DNA of 64,000 nucleotides, from the sequence record OK570374; one strand, 5' to 3'. The notes under the pieces are model-generated. The model worked only from the letters and a program-made list of their open reading frames with translations. It was not told the DNA's origin and ran no database searches. Positions 5,702-49,123 of the stretch are shown piece by piece. Position 1 is the first letter of the stretch. The number at the start of each line of letters is the position of its first letter. The position numbers and the translations under genes are program-made. Origin of the DNA: Escherichia phage UoN_LG358_1.

Positions 5702-5709
5702 TATAAATA
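5702..5709 (+). promoter_or_regulatory. late promoter box for gene 20
   Basis: TATAAATA about 35 nt upstream of the ATG at 5744. Confidence 0.7.
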
Positions 5710-5743: not shown

Positions 5744-7309
5744 ATGAATTTCAATATTTTAAGTCTTTTTGCTCCTTGGGCGAAAGAAGACGAACAAAAT
5801 TATAAAGAACAAATTAAAAATGACTTAGAGTCTATTACTGCTCCAAAACTGGATGACGGTGCGCATGAGATTGAGTCTTCAGCCAATGAAGCTTCTTATA
5901 ACGGCCTGTTCCAAAAAATGCTAGGAAGTCATGAACCTGGCATGAAAAATACCAGGGAGCTTATCAATACATACCGTAATTTGATGAATAATTACGAAGT
6001 TGATAACGCTGTACAAGAAATAGTAATGGATTCTATCGTATACGAAGACGGTCATGAAGTTGTTGCTATTGAGCTTGATACAACGGATTTTAGTCAACGT
6101 ATAAAAGACCGGATTATTGAAGAATTTAACGAAGTTTTAAATTGTCTTAATTTTCAAAGAAAAGGCGCTGATCATTTTAGGCGTTGGTATATCGATTCCA
6201 GAATTTTCTTTCACAAAATAATAAATCCAAAAAACGTCAAAGAAGGAATTCAGGAGCTCCGTCGTTTAGACCCACGAAATGTTCAATATATCAGAGAAGT
6301 TGTAACTGATATGGAACAAGGAGTAAAAATTGTAAAAGGGTATAAAGAATATTTTATATACGACACCGGCAATGAGTCTTATCAATGCGACGGCAGAACG
6401 TATGATGCCGGCACAAAAATAAAAATTCCTAAATCTGCTGTAGTATATGCTCATTCTGGTCTAGTAGATTGTACTGGACAAAATATAATCGGATATTTGC
6501 ATCGGGCTGTTAAACCGGCTAACCAACTGAAATTGATGGAAGATGCTTTAGTTATTTACCGTATTACCCGTGCTCCTGACCGTCGTGTATTTTATATTGA
6601 TACAGGGAATATGCCTTCACGAAAGGCTGCGCAACACATGCAAAATATCATGAACACGATGAAAAACCGTGTTGTATATGATGCATCTACAGGTAAAATT
6701 AAAAATCAGCAACACAATATGTCCATGACGGAAGATTATTGGTTGCAACGTCGTGACGGAAAAGCAGTAACAGAAATTGATACTCTTCCGGGTATGTCAG
6801 GAATGAGTGATATGGATGACGTTCGTTGGTTCAGAAACGCTCTTTATATGGCTTTACGAGTTCCATTATCTCGTATTCCTAACGACCAACAAGGCGGAGT
6901 TCAATTCGATGCCGGCACATCTATCACTAGAGACGAATTAAGTTTTACAAAATTTATCCGTGAGCTTCAGCATAAATTTGAAGAAATCTTCTTAGACCCT
7001 CTTAAAACTAATTTAATTTTAAAAGGCGTAATTACTGAAGATGAGTGGAATGATGAAATAAATAATATTAAGATTTCATTCCACCGCGATTCATATTTCT
7101 CCGAGCTTAAAGACGCTGAAATCATGGAACGCAGAATCAATATGCTTCAGATGGCCGAACCATTTATTGGTAAATATATTTCGCATCGTTCAGCTATGAA
7201 AGATATTCTTCATATGAGCGACGAGGAAATTGAACAAGAGGCTAAGCAAATTGAACAAGAGTCTAAAGAGGCTCGTTACCAAGACCCAGAAAATCAAGAG
7301 GATTTCTAA
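5744..7309 (+). CDS. 20: portal vertex protein
   Basis: 521 aa; late promoter upstream; position between 19 and 67. Confidence 0.95.
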
Positions 7310-7551
7310 TGGAAAGTCAATTTATTTCCGCATGCTTATCCAACGACCTCGTTCAGGCACGTAAGCTTTTTGAAAGCATCATGCTTGAAAGGACTACGGA
7401 TTTAATTGGCGAACGCAAAGTTGAAATTGCGCGTTCGTTTTTAATTGAAGGCGAAGAGCCAAAAGACGAAGATGAGTCAGATGAAAAAGATAAAAAAGAA
7501 TCTGACGACGCCGATGAAGGCGATGACGAAGATGAAGATGAGGATGACTAA
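7309..7551 (+). CDS. 67: prohead core protein with poly-acidic C-terminus
   Basis: 80 aa; TAATG overlap with gene 20 stop; C-terminal run [28 protein letters not shown]. Confidence 0.7.
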
Positions 7552-7976
7552 TGTTTCTTATCCCTGAAGACCATGAATTAGTAATCGAAAATGTCGAGAC
7601 TCTTATTCCAGAAGCTCAGGGCCGTTACGAGTCATTATCAAAAGCGTTAAGCAAAGACGATATAAATACAATTGTAGAAAACATGATTGAAACCGATACC
7701 GATTTAGCAATTGCACTCGGTTCAATTAACGAAGATATGCAAATTAACGAATTTATCGTTAAGCATGTTTCAAGTAAAGGCGAAATAACTCGAACTAAAG
7801 ACCGAGCTACTAGAGCTAGAAACGCATTTCAAACTACAGGATTGTCTAAAGCTAAACGCCGCCAAATTGCTCGTAAGGCAACCAAGTCAAAACGTGCTAA
7901 TCCGTCAGGACAAGCTCGTGGACTTCGTAAACGTAAGAAAGCTATGAAGCGCCGCAAAGCGTTAGGATTAAGCTAA
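7551..7976 (+). CDS. 68: prohead core protein
   Basis: 141 aa; TAATG coupling to gene 67; basic C-terminus; position before the protease gene. Confidence 0.65.
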
Positions 7977-8581
7977 TGAAAAAATATGGTAACCACAGAA
8001 AAATTTGGGAAGCAGTTAATGGTCCTATACCATTAGATGAATTTGGACGTAGTTACCATATACATCATATTGACGGAAATCCAGCGAACAATGAATTATC
8101 AAATTTATTATGCTTAAGCCCAAATGACCATTTTGAATTACACAGGTCTCAAGGCGATTTCGGGGCAGCGTTTTTATTACTGAATAACCATTTATCTTTA
8201 TCCGCAGAAGAGCGCTCTGATATTATATCTAAGGCAAATTCAAATAGATGGAAAAATTATTCTGATGCTGAACGCAAAAGCATAATAAATAAAAATAGAA
8301 ATTCAAATATATTTACTTGGTCTTCTGAAAGGCTTCGAAGAGAGACTGGTGCTAAAATTAGTGCATCACACTCAGCCAGGACCAAAGAGCAGAAAGAGCA
8401 AGAATCAATATTAAGATCTTCTTCTATAAAATCTGCTTGGAAATCTAGTTCATTTGACGCTCAAAGAGAACATATGTCAACTAAAGTTGTATGTCCTCAT
8501 TGCGGAAGGGAAGGACAAAAAGCTGCTATGAGCAGATACCATTTTGACAGGTGCAAATATGGAAGAGCAGTTATTAATTGA
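7976..8581 (+). CDS. HNH homing endonuclease-like protein
   Basis: 201 aa; motif YHIHHIDGNPANNELSNLLCLSPNDHFELH; inserted between 68 and 21 and overlapping the gene 21 start. Confidence 0.7.
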   Translation: MKKYGNHRKIWEAVNGPIPLDEFGRSYHIHHIDGNPANNELSNLLCLSPNDHFELHRSQGDFGAAFLLLNNHLSLSAEERSDIISKANSNRWKNYSDAERKSIINKNRNSNIFTWSSERLRRETGAKISASHSARTKEQKEQESILRSSSIKSAWKSSSFDAQREHMSTKVVCPHCGREGQKAAMSRYHFDRCKYGRAVIN

Positions 8582-9200
8582 GAACTGGGGTTTACCCGGT
8601 GAGATAAAAGAAGGAAAACCTCTAATTGAATCAGTAGATTCAAACGGAGAAAAATTGCCTCCTGGCTTGTATATTGAAGGAATATTCCTCCAAGCTGAAG
8701 TTGTGAACCGTAATAAGCGTCTTTATCCAAAACGTATCTTGGAAAAAGCTGTCGCTAATTACATGAAAGAACAGGTTCAGACTAAGCAAGCATTAGGAGA
8801 ATTAAACCATCCACCTCGCGCTAATGTTGACCCTATGCAAGCCGCTATAATTATAGAAGATATGTGGTGGAAAGGAAACGACGTATACGGACGAGCTCGT
8901 ATTATTGAAGGTGACCACGGTCCCGGAGATAAATTAGCAGCTAATATCCGAGCAGGTTGGATTCCGGGTGTTTCAAGTCGTGGACTTGGTTCTTTGACTG
9001 AAACTAACAAAGGTTATAAGATTGTGAACGAAGGTTTTAAACTTACTGTAGGCGTTGATGCAGTATGGGGACCTTCCGCTCCAGATGCTTGGGTGACTCC
9101 GAAACAAATTTCGGAAGGCACACAAGATTCGGCACCAGCTGCCAAGAAAAGTGCTGATGAAGCATTTAAGACTCTCGCAGAGAGTTTAAAAGCATTATAA
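8559..9200 (+). CDS. 21: prohead core scaffold protease
   Basis: Track ORF begins at TTG 8544; the ATG at 8559 gives MEEQLLIENWG, matching the T4 gp21 N-terminus; conserved GELNHPPRANVDPMQAAIIIEDMWWKGNDVYGRAR. Confidence 0.9.
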   Translation: MEEQLLIENWGLPGEIKEGKPLIESVDSNGEKLPPGLYIEGIFLQAEVVNRNKRLYPKRILEKAVANYMKEQVQTKQALGELNHPPRANVDPMQAAIIIEDMWWKGNDVYGRARIIEGDHGPGDKLAANIRAGWIPGVSSRGLGSLTETNKGYKIVNEGFKLTVGVDAVWGPSAPDAWVTPKQISEGTQDSAPAAKKSADEAFKTLAESLKAL

Positions 9201-9203
9201 ATA
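9196..9203 (+). promoter_or_regulatory. late promoter box for gene 22
   Basis: TATAAATA overlapping the gene 21 stop, 30 nt before the ATG. Confidence 0.7.
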
Positions 9204-9233
9204 ATAATGTAACTTAACAACAGGAACATCAAA

Positions 9234-10055
9234 ATGCTGAAACAAGAACTTATTGCTGAATCCGGTGCGCTGGAAATCGCGGTAGAACTCGACAGCGTTT
9301 TCGAATCAGTTGAACTTTCTCCGGAAGTAAAAGCTAACTTCAGCACTGTATTCGAAGCCGCAGTTAAAAAAGGTGCCGCTGACCTGGCAGAAAAACGTAT
9401 TAATGCTCTGGTAGAAGCAGCAGAAGAAAAAGTTAAAGACGAAAAAGAAAAAGCCGAAGAAGAAGCTGAAAAGAAAATCACAGAAGCTGCTTCTAAATTT
9501 TTCGACCATTTGGCCAAACAATGGCTGAGCGAAAACCAGATTGCTGTTGACCGTGGTATTAAATCTGAGTTGTTCGAATCTATGCTTTCTGGAATGAAAG
9601 AACTCTTCATTGAACACAACGTTGTAGTCCCAGAAGAAAGTGTCGACGTTGTCGCTGAAATGGAAGAAGAACTAGCTGAGCAGAAAGAAGAAACTGCGCG
9701 TCTGTTCGAAGAAGTTTCAATGCGTGATGCTTATATCAATTATGTAAGTCGTACCGTTGCTGTTAATGAAGCCGTTAAAGACCTGACTGAATCTCAGAAA
9801 GAAAAAGTTGAATCTTTAACTGAAGGTATGGAATATTCTGATGCTTTTGGTTCCAAACTTGAAGCAATCGTAGAAATGGTTAAAGGTAGTTTTTCAGAAA
9901 ATGCGGCAGTAAATGAAAGCATAAATACTGTTGATACTGAGGCAACTGGCCTTAATTTCGTAACTGAAGCGGTCGCTGAACCGTCTGATCCGGCAGAAAA
10001 AGTAGTAGCTCCTTCAATGGCAGCATACTTAGCTGGTGCAAAACGTCTCTATTAA
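9234..10055 (+). CDS. 22: prohead scaffolding protein
   Basis: 273 aa, acidic, coiled-coil-like; TATAAATA at 9196..9203; position. Confidence 0.85.
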   Translation: MLKQELIAESGALEIAVELDSVFESVELSPEVKANFSTVFEAAVKKGAADLAEKRINALVEAAEEKVKDEKEKAEEEAEKKITEAASKFFDHLAKQWLSENQIAVDRGIKSELFESMLSGMKELFIEHNVVVPEESVDVVAEMEEELAEQKEETARLFEEVSMRDAYINYVSRTVAVNEAVKDLTESQKEKVESLTEGMEYSDAFGSKLEAIVEMVKGSFSENAAVNESINTVDTEATGLNFVTEAVAEPSDPAEKVVAPSMAAYLAGAKRLY

Positions 10056-10076
10056 TTTAACAAGGTTATACAACAC

Positions 10077-14881: not shown

Positions 14882-15867
14882 TTTTCTCTGATAGTATTAC
14901 TCACAACAGTCTGAAGTTCTCGTTTTACGAGGTCCGGATTATCAGCATGAACAATATCAACACCTTCTCGTTTAGCTTCAATAAAGATATCCTGTATTGT
15001 CAGACCCATAACCTTACCGAAGTCTTTAGCTTTAACTTCGCCAATATGACTAATCACGTTAGATACACGGTTCCACGTAGAGTATTCACAGAGGTTCGCC
15101 AGAACGGTCGAGTCGTTACTAGTTAATACAGCTTTAGGTTTAATTGGCTTATCAGATTTTTTCTTCTCAGTGAATCTGGAGTTCTTAGATTTAATTGCAA
15201 TGCGGGTGCCATTATTAAAGAAATCAGGATAAACTGGTTTTAGTACGTAACCTTCAGCAACATTATCATCTGTCACTAATGGGTCAAATACACACAAATT
15301 GACTTCTTTCAAATCATCTTTTGCTGCTTCGTTATAAGCTTTGATTACAGATGTAAAATTATTTGGTAATTGAATAAGTTCATCAAAAGAACCACATCCA
15401 ATAAATGGAGCCATTTTAAATCCGAATTCGTTACAGAACGAAGTCATCATCATATCGTCCATATAAAGAACATTACCATTTTGAGTATTTACTAGAATGT
15501 CAAATACATAAAAGTCTTTTTCACCATAATCAACTTCTTTCTGAATTCCTTGACCCGCGAACTCACCAAAAATTTGATAAGAACTTACTGAACCAAGTTC
15601 ATTCGCATTCATGCATCGTTGAATAGTTTTAATAGACTCGTCATAATTCTTCAATATAATTTCGTGGCCATAGAATGATTCACTAGGAAGAATGGGACCA
15701 CTGCGCTTGCACGCAGAAACTGAGTCTTTGGATACGATGATTGAGAAATTAGTGCCATGAATTTTTTCACGAGCTACCCACAGACCACCATCTTTACCTT
15801 CAAACCGAATTTTAGAAATAAATTTATTGTTGTAGTGGTTTTCAAGAGAGGAGTACTTCTTAAACAT
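14860..15867 (-). CDS. rnlB: RNA ligase 2
   Basis: 335 aa; N-terminus [13 protein letters not shown] and KIHGTN adenylylation motif match remembered T4 Rnl2. Confidence 0.9.
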
Positions 15868-15982
15868 TTTTTCACCATTATAAATAGATTAAATAGAGAA
15901 CTTCTATTCTTTTCCGGCAGAGTGTAATGGTTACTAGATATTATCCTTGAAACCATTATACACCATAAATTCTTAAAGCATT

Positions 15983-16228
15983 TTACCACGTAATCATAAT
16001 ATACGTGCCGGAAATTTGGCATTGGTTCCAGTATGCCGTAAATCCTTCATCTTTTAACCATGACATGATATTTCCTTTGAAATTAGTTTCTTTTGGGTAG
16101 AAAACCAGTTGAGTCTTCCCATTTTTGGCAGCATTATTAATTGATTCTTCAATTAGTTCTTTTTGCTTAACAAATCCTTCATTGTTATAAGAATCTGCTA
16201 AGTTACGGTATTTTTCTGATAATAACAT
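15983..16228 (-). CDS. hypothetical protein
   Basis: 81-aa ORF in the rnlB-hoc interval, same strand as neighbours. Confidence 0.45.
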   Translation of the reverse strand: MLLSEKYRNLADSYNNEGFVKQKELIEESINNAAKNGKTQLVFYPKETNFKGNIMSWLKDEGFTAYWNQCQISGTYIMITW

Positions 16229-16585
16229 TTAGACCTCGCTTGGAATAATACGAATATCGATGAAACTAAAATCTTTTGATTGTCGTAATTCAATCTGATT
16301 TTTATCACCAACTTCAATAACCACTATTTCATTTAATTCGATTTCAGCGATATTAAAAGCAAATCGGTTTTTAATTATGTTATAAAGTATCACAAGATAA
16401 TGTTCATTGTAAAACGAACTACTATCTCCAAAAGAATACGATAATTTTTTCATAAAATCTTTGATTGAACACCATTTGTTCACACCAAGCGATGCTGGAG
16501 CAAACAAATTTTCATACAGCATATAATCAATGATGTCAGTAACAACTAGTTCCGAGTCTATCAGCACTTGAGTTAAGTTTTTCAT
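16229..16585 (-). CDS. hypothetical protein
   Basis: 118-aa ORF; 4-nt overlap with the upstream ORF. Confidence 0.45.
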   Translation of the reverse strand: MKNLTQVLIDSELVVTDIIDYMLYENLFAPASLGVNKWCSIKDFMKKLSYSFGDSSSFYNEHYLVILYNIIKNRFAFNIAEIELNEIVVIEVGDKNQIELRQSKDFSFIDIRIIPSEV

Positions 16586-16824
16586 ACTATTCCTCTCATT
16601 TTATTAACAAGTTTCTTACGACGAATATTAACATCAATATTTGATAAGTGTTTACGATAAACAATCTTCTCTTTGTTTTTCGCTTTATCTCTTGCGGCCT
16701 CAACTTTAGTAAACATCAAAGCCGCATCAAAAGCACTTATTCCACCTATCATTTTAGCAATATCTTTAAATGACTTGCCGTTTTCATGCATCATGTGCAC
16801 TTTAATTTCTGTTTTCATAATCAT
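16582..16824 (-). CDS. hypothetical small basic protein
   Basis: 80-aa ORF; K/R-rich C-terminus. Confidence 0.45.
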   Translation of the reverse strand: MIMKTEIKVHMMHENGKSFKDIAKMIGGISAFDAALMFTKVEAARDKAKNKEKIVYRKHLSNIDVNIRRKKLVNKMRGIV

Positions 16825-16868
16825 CTCTTCGTTGGAATTGAATTCATTGTAATCATACTTTAGAAAAG

Positions 16869-16889
16869 CAAAAAGGGCCGCAAGGGCCC
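16869..16889 (-). terminator. terminator downstream of hoc
   Basis: GGGCC-gcaag-GGCCC; minus-strand U-run from the plus A-run. Confidence 0.6.
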
Positions 16890-16895
16890 TTCATG

Positions 16896-17990
16896 TTATG
16901 GATAAATAATACCAGCTTCTAAAGCAGAACGATGCACAATATATCCATTTCTAGATTCCTGAACATCAACTTCTGGATAATCATTAAGCATTTTTGCTAA
17001 TACCGCAAGATGACAATAATATGGTGTATCAGCTTCGGTAGCTGTTTTCCAATCTTTACCTTCTTCAGTGAGCTTCTGGATGGCATCCATAACCCACCAG
17101 CCAACCCAAATATAAGCTGAATGACGTTGTGGAAGAGGATGAACATAAATCAGTGGGCATTCTTCCGGAACAACAGGTTCTGCTGCTTCAACAGTAACAG
17201 ACACATTACCGGTTTTAACTGAATCTGTAAATCCAGATTGTGACACAGTAACTTCACAAGCATATGTCTTCAAGCCTTCAGTAGATTCAGATACTACTCT
17301 TGTGGCTTCTGTCGAGTTGTCATCCCATTTATACGCAAGAGTAGCACCAGGAATAGCAGGGTTTATAGAAGCTGTCAAATTGAACGGAACATCAACTGTT
17401 GCAGTAGACGGGCTCGAAATGTCAACAGTGAACTCAGGGAACGTATTATTTTCAACAGTAATAACTACCGCGTCTGGCGTTATAGTTTGATTGTTATAAT
17501 CCGTTGCAGAAACGGTAATTAAACAAGTCAAAGAAACAGGTCCCGCGACAGTAGCAGTACGAGTAATATCTTTAGTAGTTTCACCAGTAGACCACAAATA
17601 ATCAAATGTTGCACCACTTGGGGCACCTTCAACATTTGCAGAGGCTTTATATTCCTGTCCAACTTTAACCGTTGGAGTAGAAGTTGATAATGTACCGGTT
17701 GCAGTCATAGTTTTATTATTGACTGTAATGGTAGTTTGAGCTTCTGCTGTTTCAGGTTCTCCTTCTGCCGGGGTTGTGGTCGCCACAACCTTAACTACTT
17801 TCGAACCCGCCGGACTAGCCGCGATGTAATCCATGGTAGCAATAACAGAACTCTGTGGAACCCCATCAACGGTCCATACAAATGATTCTGTGCCCTCAAC
17901 TGTAGCACCCGCAGCGGTAGCAGTAAATTTAGTTGTTGCTCCTACGACAGCTGTAGGCGTTAAAGGGGCAATTGTTACGGTAAATGCCAT
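16896..17990 (-). CDS. hoc: outer capsid decoration protein Hoc (Ig-like domains)
   Basis: 364 aa; N-terminus MAFTVTIAPLTPTAV and C-terminus YVHPLPQRHSAYIWVGWWVMDAIQKLTEEGKDWK match remembered T4 Hoc; T/S/V-rich repeats. Confidence 0.85.
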   Translation of the reverse strand: MAFTVTIAPLTPTAVVGATTKFTATAAGATVEGTESFVWTVDGVPQSSVIATMDYIAASPAGSKVVKVVATTTPAEGEPETAEAQTTITVNNKTMTATGTLSTSTPTVKVGQEYKASANVEGAPSGATFDYLWSTGETTKDITRTATVAGPVSLTCLITVSATDYNNQTITPDAVVITVENNTFPEFTVDISSPSTATVDVPFNLTASINPAIPGATLAYKWDDNSTEATRVVSESTEGLKTYACEVTVSQSGFTDSVKTGNVSVTVEAAEPVVPEECPLIYVHPLPQRHSAYIWVGWWVMDAIQKLTEEGKDWKTATEADTPYYCHLAVLAKMLNDYPEVDVQESRNGYIVHRSALEAGIIYP

Positions 17991-48776: not shown

Positions 48777-49123
48777 TGTTTTCCAACTTTAAAGAGAATT
48801 TCAGCGCCTTTCTTTTCAAAACGTCCTTGCATCCAAAGGAGACCATTTTCAACTTTCATATAACCAAGATTAATATAGTCCAACATTTGACGATTACTGA
48901 AAAACGCTTTAAATGTTCCATGGTTAGAACGTACATATATACCATTAGTGCACGCAGAGTGGATATTCTCCAACGGCGCCCTAACCTCATAAAACCCGTG
49001 AGGAATAGTAACATATTTCTCTGGATTTCGTTTAAACTGGTCAATCGTAGGGGCCATTCCATCGATAACCAAAGCCCAGTTCTTTTGCTTCTCTTCAACA
49101 ATTAAATCTAATTTAGCAGTCAT
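48773..49123 (-). CDS. hypothetical protein inserted between frd and td
   Basis: 116-aa ORF; stop overlaps td start (ATGA); 12 nt after frd stop. Confidence 0.5.
   Translation of the reverse strand: MTAKLDLIVEEKQKNWALVIDGMAPTIDQFKRNPEKYVTIPHGFYEVRAPLENIHSACTNGIYVRSNHGTFKAFFSNRQMLDYINLGYMKVENGLLWMQGRFEKKGAEILFKVGKQ

Follow-up and report, generated by a model that had tools for sequence, protein, structure and literature searches.

The open reading frame (ORF) at positions 7976-8581 of the DNA from Escherichia phage UoN_LG358_1 (sequence record OK570374; the whole 64,000-nucleotide (nt) stretch analysed is called the window) probably encodes a free-standing, intron-less HNH homing endonuclease that spreads by homing at the junction of genes 68 and 21, as judged from sequence comparison and from analogy to the seg and mob genes of phage T4. 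The free-standing T4 seg and mob endonucleases spread by intron-less homing (PMC2988022). The window sequence was found to be 100% identical to Salmonella phage STP4-a (Gelderlandvirus, Tevenvirinae), under whose name the locus is compared with its relatives here, and all coordinates are those of the window.

An initial annotation, made from the letters of the DNA alone, had described an ORF of 201 amino acids (aa) with an HNH motif at the 68|21 junction, and this ORF was recovered with HIHHIDGNPANNELSNLLCLSPNDHFELH in its translation and with a match to the Pfam family HNH_3 (PF13392; residues 6-52, E=1.9e-12, with a score of 47 bits where the cut-off is 24.8). Profile searches additionally returned phrog_12324, labelled 'intron-like DNA endonuclease' (E=1.4e-23), and phrog_655, labelled 'homing endonuclease' (E=4e-18). 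At the upstream end the stop codon TAA of gene 68 (7974-7976) and the HNH start codon ATG (7976-7978) share one base in the sequence TAATG, an overlap that suggests translational coupling. At the downstream end the HNH gene runs past the gene 21 start, the ATG at 8559 (MEEQLLIENWG...), which was placed by homology of the gene 21 product (gp21) and by public annotation. The HNH stop codon TGA (8579-8581) results in an overlap of 23 nt, previously estimated at about 20 nt, with gene 21 being read in the +1 frame. Both the gene 21 ATG and the AGGTG sequence ahead of it (8549-8553) are located within the HNH coding sequence, so that the proposed initiation of gene 21 inside the endonuclease gene agrees with the measured layout. 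The concept of an ORF inserted between two genes had to be refined in two respects. The position at the 68|21 junction was correct, but genes 68 and 21 overlap there (TAATG) and leave no intergenic space, so that the element is lodged within the opening codons of gene 21. Likewise, the endonuclease ORF is part of the inserted unit, but the unit that is exchanged is bigger, extending over 7981-8678 and including the gene 21 start and about 40 of its codons.

Comparison of the junction with relatives that lack the insert revealed empty sites in near-identical phages of three genera. Among approximately 800 phage records matching the region, the full-length protein was present in 10, which represent seven phages and carry the gene always at 68|21: STP4-a, S16, UTK0003, AKM_NP4 and SEA1 of the genus Gelderlandvirus, and Serratia phage X20 and Erwinia phage Vettismorki of the genus Winklervirus. 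Within Gelderlandvirus the site is empty in Melville, STML-198, CF-SP2 and ABTNLPp2, the flanks of which are 98.6-98.7% identical overall and about 99-100% identical in 60-nt windows, and CGG4-1 (flanks 91.7%) is also without the ORF. The empty Winklervirus sites are those of LC53, CHI14, CBH8, Kc304, Virsaitis27 and Gravdalen, with flanks 95.9-97.9% identical, and in Karamvirus the metagenomic contig P0002 (protein 86% identity) is filled and Enterobacter phage EnC07 is empty, with flank identities of 99.0-99.8%. Further lineages of the protein were found in a large protein database at 90, 72, 70, 69 and 57% identity. In all eight lineages of the family (57-100% identity) with readable contigs the gene is situated between gp68 and gp21, and a relative of 35% identity sits in an unrelated context, away from 68|21. 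A scan of IMG/VR for more carriers gave distant relatives only (<=35% identity over full length), and the 68|21 junction was empty in 38 of 38 other T4-like IMG/VR contigs sampled, which rules out in this sample that the junction is a general insertion hotspot. The insertion described in the initial annotation is supported by this distribution, with filled and empty sites side by side in three genera and an ORF that is far from being present here in all relatives. The element is rare, site-specific and polymorphic. As a separate observation, X20 and Vettismorki, which were isolated on different host genera (Serratia and Erwinia), are 100% identical over a 2.1-kb portal-to-protease region including the HNH cassette.

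The exchanged segment has sharp limits. STP4-a and Melville are about 99-100% identical up to position 7980 and again from position 8679 on, and the locus of STP4-a differs in length from the empty site by 580 nt. Within the segment, gp21 codons 1-40 of STP4-a and Melville share 38-73% nucleotide identity, and the gp21 N-terminus of STP4-a (MEEQLLIENWGLPGEIKEG.PLIES...) recurs at the protein level in X20, P0001 and P0002, which are carriers from other genera. The left edge of the exchange follows ATGAA and, in X20, follows ATGAATGAA. The right crossover is located at gp21 codon ~41 in the pair STP4-a/Melville, ~45 in P0002/EnC07 and ~47 in X20/LC53, in all cases at the start of the first strongly conserved gene 21 block QAEVVNRNKRLYPK. 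Sharp end points that differ between three backgrounds are as would be predicted by independent recombinational acquisition, and the comparison points to co-conversion of the flanking gp21 sequence with variable end points. Long patchy co-conversion beyond 8678 was ruled out, as the single-nucleotide polymorphisms outside 7981-8678 are scattered and several of them have the allele of the empty-site phage CGG4-1. In T4, the active site of gp21 is blocked by the nine N-terminal residues of the protein, which are removed by self-cleavage, and gene 21 is an essential gene (PMC9958956). The cassette accordingly swaps the propeptide allele of the protease and yet retains the LLIE cleavage motif.

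The expression signals at both ends of the HNH gene were examined in the same comparisons. At every empty site examined, gene 21 starts at an ATG that overlaps the gene 68 stop codon. The sequence from -30 to +5 of the HNH start matches that of the empty site of Melville, where the same signals, including AGGA, serve gene 21, and the HNH N-termini MNE (X20), MAEP (P0005) and MKP (P0007) resemble the MNEP of gp21. This correspondence indicates that the HNH gene has captured the native gene 21 start codon and ribosome-binding site for its own translation. The restart sequence of gene 21, GA(C/T)AGGTG(C/T)AAAT(CAT)ATG, also encodes the residues D-R-C-K of the zinc finger, with AGGTG lying in the Arg-Cys codons. 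This arrangement is conserved in seven of the eight carrier lineages, AGGTG being located 5 nt before the ATG in four of them and 8 nt before it in three. The element would in this way supply gene 21 with a replacement Shine-Dalgarno sequence and ATG, and the new ribosome-binding site is presumably the one in use. A pattern search detected no T4 late-promoter motif TATAAATA inside the HNH ORF, and because of this the gene is presumably co-transcribed late with the head genes. In the whole window the motif TATAAATA occurs 17 times against 8 expected, a count that no shuffle reached; copies on the + strand are found, for example, at 2310, 3707, 5079, 5702, 7661, 9196 and 11700, and those in the first 12 kb are mostly located just upstream of late structural genes. 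No significant regulatory RNA structure was found at the start sites of the HNH gene and gene 21 (z-scores of about -0.05 to -0.4), and masking of either start by such a structure was ruled out on the basis of these scores.

The anatomy of the protein is that of an HNH endonuclease with a C-terminal zinc finger. The AlphaFold2 model, with a predicted local distance difference test score (pLDDT) of 81 for the whole protein, consists of the HNH module, five long helices and a C-terminal beta-beta-alpha zinc finger; the HNH module is formed by strand, strand and helix at residues 28-31, 44-47 and 49-58, with a pLDDT of 88-94 across the module. In an alignment of 12 homologues the residues H28, H30, H31, D33, N38, N39, N43, H52 and H56 are invariant, and the zinc ligands C173, C176, H189 and C193 are likewise invariant in these and in a second alignment. 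The helical region (residues 77-168) contains repeats of about 20 residues of the form (W/Y)S-x-E-x-R-x-x-I, which are visible by eye only, and matches phrog_655 only. Pfam gave nothing above threshold on the C-terminal half and no NUMOD3 match even at E<=10, a PDB sequence search with the protein gave no match at E<=1, and NCBIfam returned no family. The ratio of nonsynonymous to synonymous substitution rates (dN/dS) of the HNH gene among four lineages is 0.12-0.24. As the gene is also conserved in eight lineages (57-100% aa identity), these sequence comparisons identify it as a gene under purifying selection and not a chance ORF.

Two further observations concern copies and relatives of the gene. 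In P0007 (metagenomic contig SRR19221883_1167), the most divergent copy with 57% identity, the zinc-finger sequence is frameshifted at a run of A; reading continues in the +1 frame as ...GQKAAMSRYHFNKCKSYG, and the overlap of gene 21 with the ORF is lost. This is either endonuclease decay, which would fit the homing-endonuclease life cycle, or an assembly error. Paralogues were not found in the window, where weak tblastn matches at 48977 and 37349 fall in unrelated ORFs. A tblastn search of phage records with the HNH protein gave two places each in HQ331142 (S16), OR122689 (AKM_NP4), OQ359887 (UTK0003) and OQ927978 (SEA1) and one in STP4-a; S16, AKM_NP4, UTK0003 and SEA1 thus seem to carry a second related endonuclease gene without counterpart in STP4-a.

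Table 1. Features of the 68|21 region and of the HNH protein, in window coordinates.
Feature	Position	Strand	Basis
Whole exchanged segment relative to empty Gelderlandviruses; 698 nt replacing 118 nt	7981..8678	+	Outermost differences from Melville and STML-198
Gene 68, encoding the prohead core protein gp68; left homology arm	7551..7976	+	ORF list and identical STP4-a annotation
Free-standing HNH homing-endonuclease gene (putative), 201 aa, I-TevIII-like, ATG start	7976..8581	+	ORF list, profiles, homology, dN/dS
Catalytic HNH (beta-beta-alpha-metal) module, residues ~6-60	7991..8155	+	Invariant columns, AlphaFold2, I-TevIII identity
Five-helix linker or DNA-binding region, residues 77-168	8204..8479	+	AlphaFold2 secondary structure, repeats
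C-terminal zinc finger CX2CX12HX3C (C173, C176, H189, C193)	8483..8557	+	Invariant columns, I-TevIII spacing
Gene 21, prohead protease, Peptidase_S77	8559..9200	+	Pfam E=2.3e-97; STP4-a/S16 annotated start; gp21 N-terminal alignment
Alternative allele of gp21 codons 1-40 travelling with the HNH gene, including the autoinhibitory propeptide	8559..8678	+	Nucleotide identity, shared protein
AGGA Shine-Dalgarno sequence, ahead of the HNH ATG	7964-7967	+	Sequence
AGGTG Shine-Dalgarno sequence for gene 21 (presumed function), 5 nt before ATG	8549..8553	+	Sequence
T4-type late-promoter motif TATAAATA closest on the upstream side, within gene 68	7661..7668	+	Pattern search
Next late-promoter motif TATAAATA	5702-5709	+	Pattern search

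Under the favoured explanation of a free-standing homing endonuclease, the enzyme would nick or cut the DNA of a T4-like phage with an empty junction during mixed infection, likely at or near the end of gene 68 or the 5' end of gene 21, and the damage would be repaired by recombination, with the carrier genome serving as the template from which the cassette is copied. The copied unit would comprise the HNH gene and about 40-47 codons of the carrier gene 21 allele, with the left crossover in the conserved gene 68 end or ATGAA and the right crossover in the gene 21 block QAEVVNRNKRLYPK. The element would take the native ribosome-binding site and ATG of gene 21 and would restore gene 21 by means of AGGTG-N5-ATG in the zinc-finger codons. 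The cleavage activity and the target site of the HNH protein are what we infer from the sequence comparisons. Rather doubtful, as an addition to this scheme, is the idea that the cassette forms a 'cleave-and-rescue' unit which is hard to lose, being stabilised by dependence as well as by drive. Such a unit may target the 5' end of the essential gene 21 and carry in cis a cleavage-resistant start and autoinhibitory propeptide. A clean deletion of the endonuclease would then abolish protease expression, because the ribosome-binding site and ATG of gene 21 are written into the zinc-finger codons. On this doubtful reading, start capture would moreover yield an unusually highly translated, late-expressed homing endonuclease.

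Several points weigh against homing as outlined above. The change of W-G-Q-P to L or T at the third position is found in only seven of the eight carriers, and all carriers have in common only that the conserved ...AAGCTAATGAATGAACCCCAATTA... is physically interrupted; since no other universal carrier change exists, self-immunity could be ascribed to nothing but disruption of the site. Some empty-site T4-like lineages natively possess the carrier-type gp21 N-terminus (MSEILLIEDWGLPGE...PLIES). Furthermore, one gain or one loss explains the pattern of filled and empty sites within each genus, and the frameshift of P0007, being situated in a run of A, might have arisen in assembly. Two candidate explanations of how carriers might be protected were considered and given up or downgraded. 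Conversion of W-G-Q-P (TGGGGTCAACC) to W-G-L/T-P as a destroyed target was rejected, as the carrier P0006 keeps Q and some empty lineages natively have W-G-L-P or W-G-I-P. A purpose-made recoding of gp21 codons 1-40 as an immunity allele is weakened by similar N-termini (…WGLPGE…PLIES) in empty-site lineages, and because carrier-type N-termini occur at empty sites, the linked allele is most simply regarded as hitch-hiking donor sequence. The empty lineages with MSEILLIEDWGLPGE...PLIES may represent the origin of the gene 21 allele of the cassette.

The same observations were considered in the light of other explanations. That the gene is a passive passenger, inherited vertically with no drive here (or never any) and occasionally lost or exchanged by ordinary homologous recombination between co-infecting T4-like phages that the endonuclease does not set off, is improbable. 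The single gain or loss per genus that would explain the distribution, the rarity of the element and the location of the crossovers in the first blocks of conserved sequence, as expected of any recombination between alleles that have diverged, are all compatible with a passenger. It is less easily reconciled with catalytic residues and zinc ligands that are invariant over deep divergence, with the low dN/dS, with the presence of the family at exactly one site in at least five phage backgrounds, and with the precise restoration of the native start that any loss would need. Synonymous divergence (dS) also argues against it: between STP4-a, X20 and P0002 the dS of the HNH gene is 0.62-0.86 compared with 1.1-1.5 for gp68 and 1.1-1.75 for the rest of gp21, values that are near saturation and could be biased by the AT-rich codon usage of the HNH gene (GC content at third codon positions of 0.23), a caveat that counts against homing. 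The lower HNH dS fits a horizontal transfer of the gene at a more recent time.

Equally improbable is a domesticated nuclease that benefits the phage, either as a weapon that cuts the essential protease gene of co-infecting relatives (marker exclusion or interference competition) or through a role in head morphogenesis or DNA packaging, as its place among the late head genes might suggest. Near-identical isolates without the gene are viable, which means that it is dispensable for morphogenesis and packaging, and T4-type packaging uses the gp17 terminase nuclease, which further counts against a packaging role. From its place in the late head operon, the gene can be expected to be expressed late, and perhaps strongly, by way of the captured initiation site of gene 21, the target region would lie in an essential gene (PMC9958956), and T-even homing endonucleases cause marker exclusion (PMC2988022), all of which would suit a domesticated nuclease; but competition and homing are hardly separate explanations, as one cut gives both. 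An endonuclease encoded in a group I intron interrupting gene 21, like I-TevIII, as the database labels 'intron-like DNA endonuclease' and 'I-TevIII-like' and the homology to I-TevIII might suggest, is refuted by an ORF that abuts gene 68 and overlaps gene 21 with no room for non-coding RNA, by start regions without significant structure and by a permissive Rfam scan of 7000-9800 that found no intron or ribozyme at E<=1, and has next to no probability.

Among known systems, the closest relative of the HNH protein is the biochemically characterised I-TevIII, whose gene lies in the group I intron within nrdB in phage RB3 and in many Tequatroviruses and which, like the HNH protein, comes from T4-like phages. 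I-TevIII acts as a dimer and produces a double-strand break with 2-nt 3' extensions close to its insertion site. The identity is 29% over residues 6-194 (E=3e-25; BLASTP against the intact protein of 269 aa) and approximately 48% for the HNH domain over residues 6-91 (tblastn). The DNA-binding domain of I-TevIII contains two zinc fingers, CX2CX12-13HX3C (PMC1865063). The spacing CX2CX12HX3C is the same in both proteins, and the single finger described here aligns to either I-TevIII finger. In contrast to I-TevIII, with its 269 aa, two fingers and intron location, the protein has 201 aa, a single finger and a helical linker of reduced length, no intron is present, and its locus is the gene 21 start instead of nrdB; because of the different locus, the target must differ from that of I-TevIII. 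On sequence grounds, the database label 'I-TevIII-like' is right on homology and wrong on lifestyle, the protein being a free-standing, shortened one-finger relative.

T4 MobE, like MobA a free-standing HNH homing endonuclease, is comparable in that an intron-less HNH gene is lodged between conserved genes (PMC2790892, PMC2988022). The mobE gene is promoterless, is co-transcribed with the upstream gene and is passed on together with polymorphisms in the adjoining part of the essential gene downstream (PMC2790892; PMC2988022). In the T4 annotation the start of mobE (14992-15417) and the stop of nrdA (15417-17681) share one base, as do the HNH gene and gene 68 here. The similarity to MobE is marginal, at 33% identity over 39 aa with a pairwise E=0.009, and restricted to the HNH motif; no homology to T4 Mob proteins was found beyond this motif in a comparison that covered MobE only. 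MobE showed no zinc finger in the comparison, occupies a true intergenic site and does not replace the start of the downstream gene. SegF and SegG of T4 also co-convert part of an adjacent essential gene, with localised allele replacement (PMC2988022); they differ in belonging to the GIY-YIG superfamily and in having cleavage sites hundreds of base pairs away. I-HmuI of Bacillus phage SPO1, an HNH homing endonuclease of solved structure, was the only homing-endonuclease fold match, in which Foldseek aligned 79 columns of the HNH region at a non-significant E=0.9, and it differs in being intron-encoded and in having other DNA-binding modules. In Aeromonas phage Aeh1, as reportedly described by Friedrich et al. 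in 2007, the insertion of mobE splits nrdA and results in a ribonucleotide reductase of the 'genes-in-pieces' kind. The Aeh1 mobE is similar to the present case as a free-standing HNH gene inside a coding sequence whose function is kept by new translation signals. The nrdA gene is split there into two reassembling polypeptides, whereas here only the first 3-4 codons are taken and gene 21 is restarted at full length with an alternative N-terminus.

Some variation was also noticed in neighbouring genes. The tail of gp67, which is acidic and rich in Asp/Glu (3' part of gene 67, 7400-7551), differs in length between near-identical Gelderlandviruses; it measures 243 nt in both STP4-a and Melville, 237 nt in both S16 and SEA1 and 270 nt in CGG4-1, and local identity is also lower. 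A TTT insertion/deletion (indel) at 10056-10058, in the gap between genes 22 and 23, is present in STP4-a, S16, SEA1, X20, P0002 and LC53 and absent from Melville, STML-198, CGG4-1 and CkP1. Record PP212877.1, 'Aeromonas phage PS49', labelled as an A. hydrophila phage, shares 99.5% identity over the head genes with the Enterobacter Karamvirus EnC07 (PQ096442.1), which makes the host label look odd for this genus.

That T4-like phages harbour free-standing HNH homing endonucleases is textbook knowledge, and the ORF is already annotated in GenBank/RefSeq. A literature search found no paper on this junction or gene, and the STP4-a paper is silent on the gene. Insertion at a zero-length junction via start-codon capture, a replacement ribosome-binding site embedded in zinc-finger codons, co-transfer of a protease propeptide allele and the occurrence of filled/empty pairs in three genera appear to be undescribed. 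These details are variations on a known theme, and no general concept is changed by them. The insertion explains the 580-nt indel and the locally divergent protease N-terminus among near-identical Salmonella phages.

The locus adds a tractable case of an I-TevIII-type HNH endonuclease outside an intron, with zero intergenic space and in an essential late head-gene operon. Natural filled and empty partners on the same hosts are present in culture collections, namely STP4-a or S16 with Melville, and X20 with LC53 or CHI14. These pairs allow the study of target recognition by a one-finger I-TevIII relative, of nicking versus double-strand breakage, and of the expression of an essential downstream gene under start-codon capture with an embedded ribosome-binding site. 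The finding is relevant to phage genomics and to annotation for phage therapy.

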